Shown here piece after piece: positions 18,001 through 21,000 of a DNA stretch of 40,488 nt (position 1 is the first letter of the stretch; each line of letters begins with the position of its first letter). Where the stretch lies: IMG/VR virus record IMGVR_UViG_2700989521_000020. The stretch is one strand, 5' to 3'. Position numbers: made by a program. The stretch comes from a virus. Its lineage: Duplodnaviria > Heunggongvirae > Uroviricota > Caudoviricetes.

Positions 18001-21000
18001 ATGCGTCAATATCCGCGAAAGCAGTGCGCAGATGAGCGTGAAGCGTATGGCAAGCCTGATTGAGTACACAACTTCCTGGGCTGTGGAGCAGGGGGTCAGA
18101 TTTACCGACAGGAGGTACGAATGAGACGAAAGCGACGAAGCATCACCGATATAGTCTGTGAAAACTGCAATTACCTTCCAACGAAACGTTCCAGAAATAA
18201 ACTCAAGCCAATCCCAAAAGAATCTGACGTTAAAACCTTCAATTACACGGCTCACCTGTGGGATGTCCGTTGGCTAAGGCGTCGTGCAAGATTTAATAGT
18301 CATTCCGAATAGCTCAATGTACGAGGAATAAGATGATGGCAAACCTACGCAAAGAAGCGCGTGGCAGAGAATGCCAGGTACGGATTTATGGCGTATGCAA
18401 TGGCAATCCTGAAACTACAGTTTTGGCGCATTACCGAATGGCTGGAATTTGCGGAACGGGAATGAAGCCAGATGACCTGTTGGCTGCATGGGCCTGTAGT
18501 GACTGCCATAATGAAATCGATCGCCGTACTCGCATTCTCGACAACAACGACGCCAGACTTTACCACCTGGAAGGCGTGATCAGGACGCAGGCGATACTGC
18601 TGAAGGAGGGGAAAATTAAGTCATGAATGAATATGAGTTTGTGCTTCCCTGGCCGCCGACGGTGAATACCTACTGGCGAAGACGGGGAAGCCAGTACTAC
18701 ATCAGCGATAAAGGCCAGAAATACCGAAAAGACGTACAGCAAATCATCCGGCAACTCAGATTAGACATTTTCACTAAATCACGACTTCGCATCACAATTA
18801 TTGCTGAACCACCAGATTCCCGCCGTCGCGACCTCGATAACATCCTGAAAGGTTTACTCGACTCTCTTATCTACGCCGGATTTGCGGAAGACGACGAGCA
18901 ATTCGATGACATTCGCGTAATTCGCGGCGTGAAAGTGCCTGGCGGTAGAGTGGGGATAAAAATCACCGAACTGGAGAACATTTGATGAATGCTAAAATTC
19001 AAACGATACCTGAATTACTGATCTGCACCAGGGGAAATCAGACAGAAGTCGCCAGAATACTGAACTGCAATCGTGCCACAGTCAGAAAATACATTGATGA
19101 TAAAGATGCGAAAAAGCACGCCGTCGTCAATGGCGTCCTTATGGTTCATCGCGGATGGGGTAAAGATACTGATGCGTGATATCCGGCAGGTTCTTGAGCG
19201 CTGGGGTGCATGGGCGGCAAATAACTATGAGGATGTTACATGGTCGCCCATTGCTGCCGGATTTAAGGGACTGATCCCCGAAAAAGTAAAATCACGTCCA
19301 CAGTGTTGTGACGATGACGCGATGATTATATGCGGGTGTATGGCTCGCCTTAACAGGAACAACAGCGATCTGCATGACTTGCTGGTTGATTATTACGTGT
19401 TGGGGGAGACATTCATGGCGCTGGCACGTAAGCATGGATGCTCTGATGGAACTATCGGTAAAAAATTACAGAAAGCGGAGGGTGTGGTTGAAGGGATGTT
19501 AATGTTACTTGGTGTCAGACTGGAAATGGACCGATATGTGCAACGCCTCTGACAGGAGGCGTTTGCCGTTCACTATGTGAAGTGTGTCAATTTGTGAGCG
19601 TTATGCTGTTTACTTTATAGTACAGGGACGTAAGAGTTATCTACCTGTTAATAACATATATACAACAATGAACAGGGGGCAAAATGGACATTGAAGATTT
19701 TCTGGAGGCGGAAGACAATGATCTGTCTCTGTGGAATGATGATATTTTAAGCATTGACTGGTTCGTTATCCTCAAAGAGCTTTTGAAATACCAGAACAGG
19801 TTAAAGTTAAACTATTCAGAATTACTTCTGCTGGCTAATTTTGTTTCATTTCACCAGGACGTAGATTCGCAAACATTACCATCAATATCTCTTTTTGCCA
19901 CCAGAATGCGTACATCCCGGGACGCCATACAAGGAGTCCTGGTGTGTCTGGAGGAGAAAGATATGTTACAGAAGATAAGTTACGCGCAAATCGATCATGA
20001 CGATGATTTGCGAAACATCTATGATATCAAGCCATTAATCCGCCGGTTAATTTGGTTATTGAAAAGTGGTTGTGATAAAAAGCATACTTGCCCCCTCTGC
20101 GGGAAAGTCGCTATATCTAATGATGAAATTGAGAAAAAATTCGGATTCAGAATTTGCGGGAATAAGAAAAGGCCGCAAAGCTGGTGCCGTTCATGCAGAA
20201 GCACGAAACAACGCCGACTGAATACATCGCTAATTGGTAAAAAAAGGCCCCGCAAATCCCCACCAGAGGTGGTGTGAAGTGTCGCGGAATCCTTGATTCC
20301 GTTCCCGATTGAATGGGGTGCTAAAAAGTATTTTACGTACGTAAAAATCTGCATATCATGATAAGAGTGGTTGCATTGCCACGCAGCCGACCCCGTCGAT
20401 GAGCGGGGTTTTTTTGTACCCAGAATCCTCTGAGCTATACGGAAAGTACACAGAAAGGAAGGTGCGACCACAATTAATAACAAAATCTTAAAAATCGCAC
20501 ATGGCACTATTAGTTTTCTAAATATTGTGTATTTTTTGTATTGCAGGATGACCCTGTAACGAAGTTTGCGTAACAGCATTTTGCTCTACGAGTTTGCCAG
20601 CCCCCCAGTGGCTGGCTTTTTTATGTCCGTAACATCCTGTGTATCAATAAATGTTGTTGTCTACGTACGTCAAGTAGTCGCATGAGATCTGACCAGATAT
20701 GTTAAGGTTGCAGCTCTCTTTGAATATAATTATCATTTTCATTACGTTATTGTTACGTTTATCCGGTGCGCCGTAAAACGCCGTCCTTCAGGGGGTGGAG
20801 GATGTCAAGAATATAGTTATCGTATGGTGCTCAAGGAGTATTGTGTAATATGAAAATAATTATTTTTAGAGTGCTAACTTTTTTCTTTGTTATCTTTTCA
20901 GTTAATGTGGTTGCGAAGGAATTTACCTTAGACTTCTCGACTGCAAAGACGTATGTAGATTCGCTGAATGTCATTCGCTCTGCAATAGGTACTCCATTAC

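Follow-up and report, generated by a model that had tools for sequence, protein, structure and literature searches.

Where is the late promoter PR' located in POCJ13, the phage that turned Shigella flexneri into a producer of Shiga toxin 1 (Stx1), and does the additional open reading frame (ORF) present between its antiterminator gene Q and stx1 belong to the late transcription unit? The sequence that raises this question is IMG/VR record IMGVR_UViG_2700989521_000020, a stretch of 40,488 nucleotides (nt), the whole of which is referred to here as the window. Its region 19553-20840 is 100% identical to phage POCJ13 (KJ603229, whose coordinates equal those of the window plus 51), and all coordinates given are those of the window. 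The Q gene (19172-19552, encoding 126 amino acids, aa; annotated as Q in KJ603229) is followed by a 197-aa ORF (19684-20277), and the initial annotation proposed PR' to be situated between the two, at a TTGTGA hexamer (19592-97) separated by an 18-nt spacer from TATAGT (19616-21). On grounds of homology, the PR' of POCJ13 is instead assigned here to 20332-20359, with a start at ≈20365, downstream of the 197-aa ORF, and the latter is therefore outside the late transcription unit. All of these elements, and the hairpins described below, are on the plus strand. The explanation developed here, taken as a whole and thus including the position of PR', the origin of the intervening DNA, the expression of the ORF and the function of its product, is given a probability of roughly 85%.

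The GenBank record of VT1-Sakai annotates a putative late promoter, a Q utilization (qut) site and two terminators (the first being a putative rho-independent one) directly after Q. Aligned to the window, these annotations correspond to 20332-20359 (promoter), ≈20373-80 (qut), and 20392-20414 and ≈20595-20623 (terminators), and from position 20320 on, the window can be aligned with VT1-Sakai and other Stx1 and Stx2a phages across their Q-stx1 region, with all of their annotated late elements included. The promoter is composed of the -35 hexamer TTTACG (20332-37), a 16-nt spacer and the -10 hexamer TATCAT (20354-59). The primary transcription start site (TSS) of PR' and the 3' end at the terminator tR' were mapped by differential RNA sequencing (dRNA-seq) and Term-seq, respectively, in both Stx prophages of strain Sakai by Sy et al. 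(PMC7547250), the distance between the two being 258 nt, of which the last 74 nt constitute the small RNA StxS (PMC7547250). In the sequences of these prophages, Sp15 (Stx1) and Sp5 (Stx2a), the distance from the end of TATCAT to the end of the tR' stem is likewise exactly 258 nt, and with the 3' end located in the T-run this places the Sakai TSS 5-8 nt after TATCAT. Transfer of this position to the window predicts a start site at 20364-20367 and a 3' end at ≈20620-20622.

The similarity extends through the entire leader. The segment 20366-20622 is identical to Sp15 in 247 of 258 aligned columns (257 nt in the window as compared to 258 nt in Sakai), and its 3'-terminal 74 nt (20549-20622), representing the StxS homologue, match both Sp15 and Sp5 at 72 of 74 positions and end in tR' (hairpin 20596-20616, T-run 20617-20622), the terminator of the leader. 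A first terminator-like hairpin (20389-20410), followed by seven T residues through position 20417, occupies approximately +25 to +53 of the PR' transcript. With a hairpin and T-run at both 20389-20417 and 20596-20622, the PR' leader ends in an intrinsic terminator, of the kind that Q has to override. The initial annotation correctly noted that the hairpins at 20389-20410 and 20596-20616 are the first canonical terminator-like hairpins on the plus strand, and that PR'-driven transcription of stx1 has to pass two such structures. Upstream of the start, positions -50 to -1 are identical to Sakai at 42 of 50 positions, the differences being located either upstream of the -35 hexamer or within a 2-nt swap (GATC to GTAC) discussed below.

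The conservation of this segment was assessed in 22 ORF-bearing loci, among which eight distinct intergenic sequence variants occur. A 23-nt PR' core, TCTGCATATCATGATAAGAGTGG, is found without mismatch in all 22 loci as well as in Sp5 and Sp15, 666-681 nt after the ORF start in the former, and is invariant across loci whose ORF has diverged to a synonymous divergence (dS) of ≈0.6, including prophages without stx that carry other cargo downstream. In a sliding comparison the segment 20326-20385 is the most conserved block of the 1.3-kb region (identity 0.96-0.99), and the stem of the first hairpin varies in sequence with retention of base pairing. StxS was reported to co-occur with the 144-aa Q clade by Sy et al. 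(PMC7547250), and the Q of POCJ13 is 89% identical over 125 aa to the 144-aa Q of VT1-Sakai, the last 19 residues of which are not matched. Against the Pfam family PF06530, the Q21 family (PMC9388147), POCJ13 Q scores 172.6 bits (cut-off 26; E-value 3.4e-51; 117 of 118 profile positions).

Several smaller observations concern the same segment. The hairpin at 20389-20417 is strong and followed by seven T residues, yet the published PR' RNA of Sakai is 258 nt in length (PMC7547250); this hairpin could either be leaky or give rise to very short RNAs that were missed, and it could also act in Q loading. The heptamer TAAGAGT at 20362-68 may, judged from its -10-like sequence, be a pause element of PR'. 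The Q-binding element (QBE) of 21Q is a direct repeat of TGAGCA (PMC6606751), and no such repeat was noticed when the PR' spacer was read by eye, without a scan. Rfam gave no significant match over 19000-21000, StxS being unmatched and the sole hit being a sub-threshold GadY.

The features on which the earlier placement of PR' relied are all present in the sequence: Q ends at 19552, the TTGTGA/TATAGT pair has an 18-nt spacer, a TTAATA hexamer is found at 19648-53, and the ORF at 19684-20277 encodes 197 aa with a CPLC motif, a CRSC motif and a basic tail. If 19592-19621 were PR', with a pause at TTAATA, the ORF would be the first gene of a constitutive transcript, and stx1 would be reached only if Q carried polymerase across the ORF and past both terminators. 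Directly after Q is the usual position of PR', the spacing of the hexamers is acceptable, a -10-like hexamer follows at ≈+21 from the start expected for this site, and no canonical terminator precedes the ORF. These points are outweighed by the complete homologue of the mapped PR'-StxS-tR' unit at 20332-20622, which sits downstream of the ORF and, by homology, brings the start site near 20360, a location that the initial annotation itself had named as contradicting its proposal, and by the similarity of POCJ13 Q to Q proteins that use a promoter of the downstream type. The Q-ORF intergenic region has no significant similarity to PR', the best local alignment being a 7-mer that 77% of shuffled sequences equal or exceed; for the same reason, namely that only TAAGAGT is shared and at chance level, a decayed copy of PR' was rejected as the source of this region.

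The candidate site, which matches 9 of 12 consensus positions, also behaves differently among relatives, given that its -10 and pause elements vary whereas the downstream PR' is invariant. The pair TTGTGA/TATAGT is intact in 14 of the 22 loci, POCJ13 among them, and TATAGT itself is present in five of the eight variants, being replaced by TACAGG, TATAGG or TATGTA in the remaining three, which correspond to 8 of the 22 loci. The TTAATA hexamer, suggested previously to be a sigma-dependent pause, is CTAAGC or TTAACC in relatives. Conservation of the -35 hexamer TTGTGA is accounted for by its location within the 3' arm of a conserved RNA hairpin, a reason unrelated to promoter function. A promoter scan returned eight sites of 9/12 quality in 1.9 kb, as compared to 4.5 +/- 1.9 in shuffled sequences, and no terminator occurs shortly after 19592-19621, the next terminator-like site being ≈760 nt further on, beyond a whole gene and another promoter. 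We regard a function of this site as PR' as extremely improbable, and it would at best be a weak private promoter of the ORF; the associated proposal that every lysogen transcribes the ORF from PR' was dropped, the ORF not being part of the PR' leader.

How Q and PR' came to be separated is apparent from the limits of homology to canonical phages. Homology to canonical Q is lost at ≈19539, and homology returns at 20320, ≈45 nt before the PR' TSS (canonical hits cover query positions 1-140 in one search and 768-1288 in another). Based on this alignment, Q and PR' are separated by a 780-bp cassette (19540-20319), in which the 197-aa ORF is preceded by a new stop codon for Q, two hairpins and a 5' leader and is followed by a 3' tail of 42 nt. 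The cassette takes the place of the final 19 codons of the 144-aa Q, the reading frame closing instead at the new, hairpin-embedded stop codon; it stands in for ≈41 nt of sequence encoding the Q tail, and the POCJ13 Q stops 18 residues before the 144-aa Q of Sakai. Region 19553-20840 is ≈92% identical in the Shigella sonnei phages 75/02 Stx and 7888, while in the remaining Stx1 and Stx2a phages of the collection (289 records) the match begins at window position 20320, with nothing before it.

The initial annotation viewed the ORF as an accessory gene, rich in AT, that had been placed between Q and the terminators. This view stands, and the insertion is restricted to some relatives: the Q-ORF-PR' arrangement is present in 19 of 5426 complete Escherichia coli genomes, and the cassette in 11 of 98 IMG/VR contigs carrying a PR' of the POCJ13 type, the remaining 87 being of the canonical form. 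All 74 canonical IMG/VR loci that could be evaluated have PR' directly adjoining the Q tail, and the cassette is the only alternative arrangement seen. Some of the ORF-bearing prophages lack stx and have tRNAs, terB or a nanS-p esterase gene downstream of the module instead. The ORF (41.6% GC) and its leader (39.7%) are poorer in GC than Q (48.8%) and the window (48.7%). A sensitive blastn search of 50,697 phage records found no relatives of the cassette leader beyond the three cassette-bearing phages, and derivation of the leader from the late region of another phage was rejected for this reason. The 10-nt direct repeat TGTGAAGTGT occurs at 19576-19585 and 20273-20282, within the cassette at distances of 36 nt from its left and 38 nt from its right edge; it was rejected as an insertion scar, because chance repeats at least as long occur elsewhere in the region.

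The separation of Q from PR' should not matter, because Q acts in trans on a binding site at PR'. The 126-aa Q of POCJ13 would act in this manner at its PR' site, across the cassette, in a phage that is fully inducible: mitomycin C raises the number of POC-J13 plaque-forming units ≈1000-fold and the host is lysed (PMC4193171). Q and PR', usually treated as an inseparable module, thus tolerate a 780-bp insertion together with an 18-residue shortening of Q.

The left end of the cassette encodes two adjacent hairpins. The first of these, H1 (19542-19563; AACGCCUCU-GACA-GGAGGCGUU), has the Q stop codon at its loop edge, the first base of the stop codon being part of the last stem pair, and the second, H2 (19567-19600), overlaps the TTGTGA hexamer with its 3' arm. 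Pairing in H1 is unbroken except for a closing U-G, with compensatory double changes in two pairs, and H2 contains one compensatory pair. Across eight distinct sequences 98% of the cells of H1 and H2 are paired (slid controls, 36-49%), the covariation score from the three compensatory pairs is reached by 1 of 500 shuffles, and the minimum free energy of 19530-19600 is -26.9 kcal/mol (z = -3.4). Conservation and covariation in these eight related sequences suggest that H1 and H2 form in the RNA. In E. coli 2013C-3033 (L009) H1 is followed by the T-run TTTTTTGTT and is terminator-like; H1 is possibly a weak terminator or an RNA-stability element. The earlier statement that the stretch between Q and the ORF contains no terminator holds as far as canonical terminators are concerned, although it overlooked this conserved double hairpin.

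With PR' downstream of the ORF, expression of the latter has to be explained from another source. The nin genes, Q and the ORF are all located on the same strand, an N gene is present, and no canonical terminator is found between Q and the ORF or between the ORF stop codon (20277) and PR'. Moreover, no positionally conserved promoter was detected in the 131-nt ORF leader among the eight variants, and the ORF is intact and under purifying selection even in lineages that lack the candidate -10 hexamer. Most likely, the delayed-early PR operon ends with the ORF, which would be co-transcribed with Q in lytic growth; in that case N-modified polymerase starting at PR would transcribe the nin genes, Q and then the ORF.

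The morons of lambdoid phages are extra genes with their own promoter and terminator, situated between conserved genes. If the ORF were a true moron, 19592-19621 would be its private promoter, H1 would insulate it, and a lysogen transcript of ≈790 nt would end at the first hairpin of the PR' leader; this is compatible with PR' at 20332-20359 and differs solely as to the mode of ORF expression. In favour of a moron, the cassette has a low GC content (41.6% versus 48.7%) and shows presence/absence polymorphism, 14 of 22 loci, with POCJ13 among them, retain the hexamer pair, a conserved hairpin precedes this pair, and the distant homologues described below stand alone ahead of fimbrial operons and must have promoters of their own. 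Conversely, the match of the candidate promoter is at chance level, the T at position -7 of its -10 hexamer is lost in three of the eight variants in which the ORF is nonetheless intact under purifying selection, no alternative promoter is positionally conserved, and the ORF is not followed by a dedicated terminator. We consider expression as a moron doubtful, though by no means far-fetched, and prefer co-transcription with Q.

The ORF itself, assigned to phrog_34160 and equivalent to ORF1 of phage 7888, is by its pattern of substitution a real gene under purifying selection. The ratio of nonsynonymous to synonymous divergence (dN/dS) is 0.17-0.34 (pairs with dS up to 0.65), the reading frame is intact in 19 of the 22 loci with conservation of the ribosome-binding site and ATG, and the four zinc-binding cysteines and an FGFR...QSWC motif are invariant. 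The encoded protein is predicted to consist of a winged helix resembling the N-terminal domain of DnaD (residues ≈21-129), a C4 zinc ribbon (134-172, with CPLC at 136-139 and CRSC at 168-171) and a basic tail. The zinc ribbon has the invariant pattern H-x-CPxC...FG-R...S-C-x2-CR, which matches no Pfam or NCBIfam family. The kinship to the zinc-ribbon protein of the pL operon (238 aa, 7056-7772) that had been suggested was not borne out, hhalign returning a probability of 0.3% with alignment of only the two CxxC knuckles. A component of a defence system was rejected in the absence of PADLOC and NCBIfam hits, and a winged helix derived as a paralogue of the phage replication initiator (for example as an origin competitor) was rejected for want of similarity, the initiator itself having no Pfam hit.

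Frameshifts shorten the ORF to 97 aa in 2 of the 22 loci, and in a third the 197-aa frame is not intact; the former are E. coli 06-00048 (L008, 2784-3376) and one IMG/VR contig (L026), in which the ORF is annotated as two genes. From the frameshifted loci it follows that the ORF is dispensable in at least some prophages. The ORF could be a decaying passenger without current function, a remnant of the recombination by which foreign DNA became attached to the 3' end of Q, in line with the three broken frames, the narrow distribution of the ORF and the fact that no named family is matched beyond a generic winged helix. With dN/dS at 0.17-0.34 for dS values up to 0.65, 19 of 22 frames intact, and the zinc cysteines, FGFR...QSWC motif, ribosome-binding site and ATG all retained, such a passenger is very unlikely, and a selected gene remains the preferred interpretation.

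Close homologues of the protein (at least 76% identity) are found only in E. coli and Shigella prophages, where the Q before them is always of 126 aa and PR' always follows. Among 1.8 billion representatives searched with a profile, the two domains were combined in no more than a handful of proteins, and many others contained one or the other on its own. The genes of three distant homologues (identity 26-28%, E-values 1e-10 to 4e-14 with a profile built from close members only) each follow a divergent NlpC/P60 gene and are located directly upstream of an operon for chaperone-usher fimbriae (L039, 2005-2526; L041, 5001-5594; L043, 994-1563), in Cedecea sp. NFIX57 and in two metagenome contexts, of which one is plasmid-like (ProQ, ParE). 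A 39%-identical relative is present in Pseudocitrobacter on a small, mobile-looking contig. The signature CPxCG...FGFR...QSWCRxCR also occurs in stand-alone proteins of 50-100 aa and in tandem copies (P0018, P0020, P0025, P0033, P0040), and one protein of 3179 aa contains 34 stretches matching the zinc-ribbon motif.

The location of the distant homologues ahead of fimbrial operons suggests that members of this family are regulators, and the 197-aa product is probably an oligomeric DNA-binding regulatory protein. A more specific proposal is that it represents the phage member of an undescribed family of promoter-adjacent regulators, which could bind the PR' palindrome or reprogram host surface genes; we consider this unlikely. 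If true, a protein bound to the -35 palindrome TTTTACGTACGTAAAA would tune late and stx1 transcription or, alternatively, expression in the lysogen from a promoter of its own could reprogram genes for host surface structures.

The palindrome in question is a perfect one of 16 bp (20331-20346) that spans the -35 hexamer of PR', and a second palindrome of 10 bp, TATCATGATA (20354-20363), spans the -10 hexamer. Canonical Stx phages have TTTACGATCGTAAA at the -35 palindrome, with a central GATC (a Dam site), whereas the centre is GTAC in POCJ13, a swap that preserves the symmetry of the palindrome and lies 15 bp from the cassette junction. The GTAC form is found in 11 IMG/VR contigs, all of them ORF-bearing, and the GATC form in 87 separate contigs, of which 74 extend far enough upstream to be evaluated, all with PR' adjoining the Q tail and without a cassette. 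The association between GTAC and the cassette could be linkage by descent, because the swap is only 15 bp from the junction. The TTACG..CGTAA palindrome was not found beside the distant homologues of the 197-aa protein, where other long palindromes are present; two of the three intergenic regions downstream of these homologues contain long GATC-centred palindromes, TGATCTAGATCA and GAAAAAGATCTTTTTC.

A number of points weigh against the explanation put forward here. The TSS of POCJ13 is transferred from Sakai by homology, and the absolute coordinates given in PMC7547250 could not be matched to NC_002695.2 (probably owing to a different record version), so that only the 258-nt distance was used. 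On consensus, 19592-19621 equals PR', both matching 9 of 12 positions, and it is intact in POCJ13; consensus alone therefore cannot separate the two. Some transcripts from PR could stop at H1, the hairpin at the end of Q, which is followed by a T-run in one relative. We infer both the co-transcription of the ORF with Q and the DNA-binding role of its product. The structural model of the protein is of medium confidence, AlphaFold having given a mean predicted local distance difference test (pLDDT) score of 72 when the three distant homologues were added, and of 57.8, too poor for use, with close homologues only.

Between the late leader and stx1A (ATG at 20850), the AT-rich sequence GAATATAATTATCATTTTCATTAC (20722-20745) is identical among the aligned Stx1 phages and corresponds to what we take to be the place of the Fur-regulated promoter Pstx1. 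If so, it would allow Q-independent expression of stx1, which is consistent with the recA-independent basal toxin of the POCJ13 phage (PMC4193171).

With respect to known proteins, the winged helix of the 197-aa product matches the N-terminal domain of DnaD (PF21984; PDB 2vn2, 8ojj), but the DnaD C-terminal domain is absent according to Pfam, and a C4 zinc ribbon and basic tail are present instead. Unlike a DnaD-type replication protein, it is encoded between Q and PR', far from the replication genes, and it has no similarity to the phage replication protein; judged by this architecture, it is not a DnaD orthologue. PapI and PefI, the winged-helix regulators encoded at the head of fimbrial operons, lack the zinc ribbon, and the fold match to them is generic for winged helices. 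Like morons, the POCJ13 cassette is optional, compositionally atypical and composed of a single gene between conserved neighbours; unlike these, its ORF lacks both a conserved promoter and its own terminator, and an insertion site at the Q/PR' boundary that cuts into Q is unusual.

The same gene has been in GenBank since 2001 as ORF1 of the S. sonnei phage 7888 (CAC12886), annotated as hypothetical, and occupies the same place between Q and stxA in this phage and in phage 75/02 Stx; theirs is a different allele (79.7% protein identity to POCJ13), with collinear flanks at 91.6% DNA identity. The literature searched did not describe the separation of Q from PR', the shortening of Q, the domains of which the protein is composed or its distant relatives at fimbrial operons. 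PR', StxS and tR' of POCJ13 are, by contrast, already known elements. The Q proteins of POCJ13 and Sakai belong to the same family with 89% identity, the Sakai Q being noted in GenBank as similar to Q of 933W and H-19B, and POCJ13 shares with the PR'-StxS-tR' units of Sp15 and Sp5 the -35 and -10 hexamers, the initially transcribed region, both hairpins and StxS. In Sp15 and Sp5 the reading frame of the 144-aa Q extends into PR', where its stop codon is located, whereas in POCJ13 Q has 126 aa and is separated from PR' by 780 bp that include an additional gene, and GTAC takes the place of GATC in the -35 palindrome. The position of the late start tells what controls toxin release in POCJ13: its toxin is wired as in the Stx1 phages of E. 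coli O157, with a constitutive PR', StxS and tR', and the cassette-bearing phages always carry, between Q and PR', a conserved protein of a predicted DNA-binding type.

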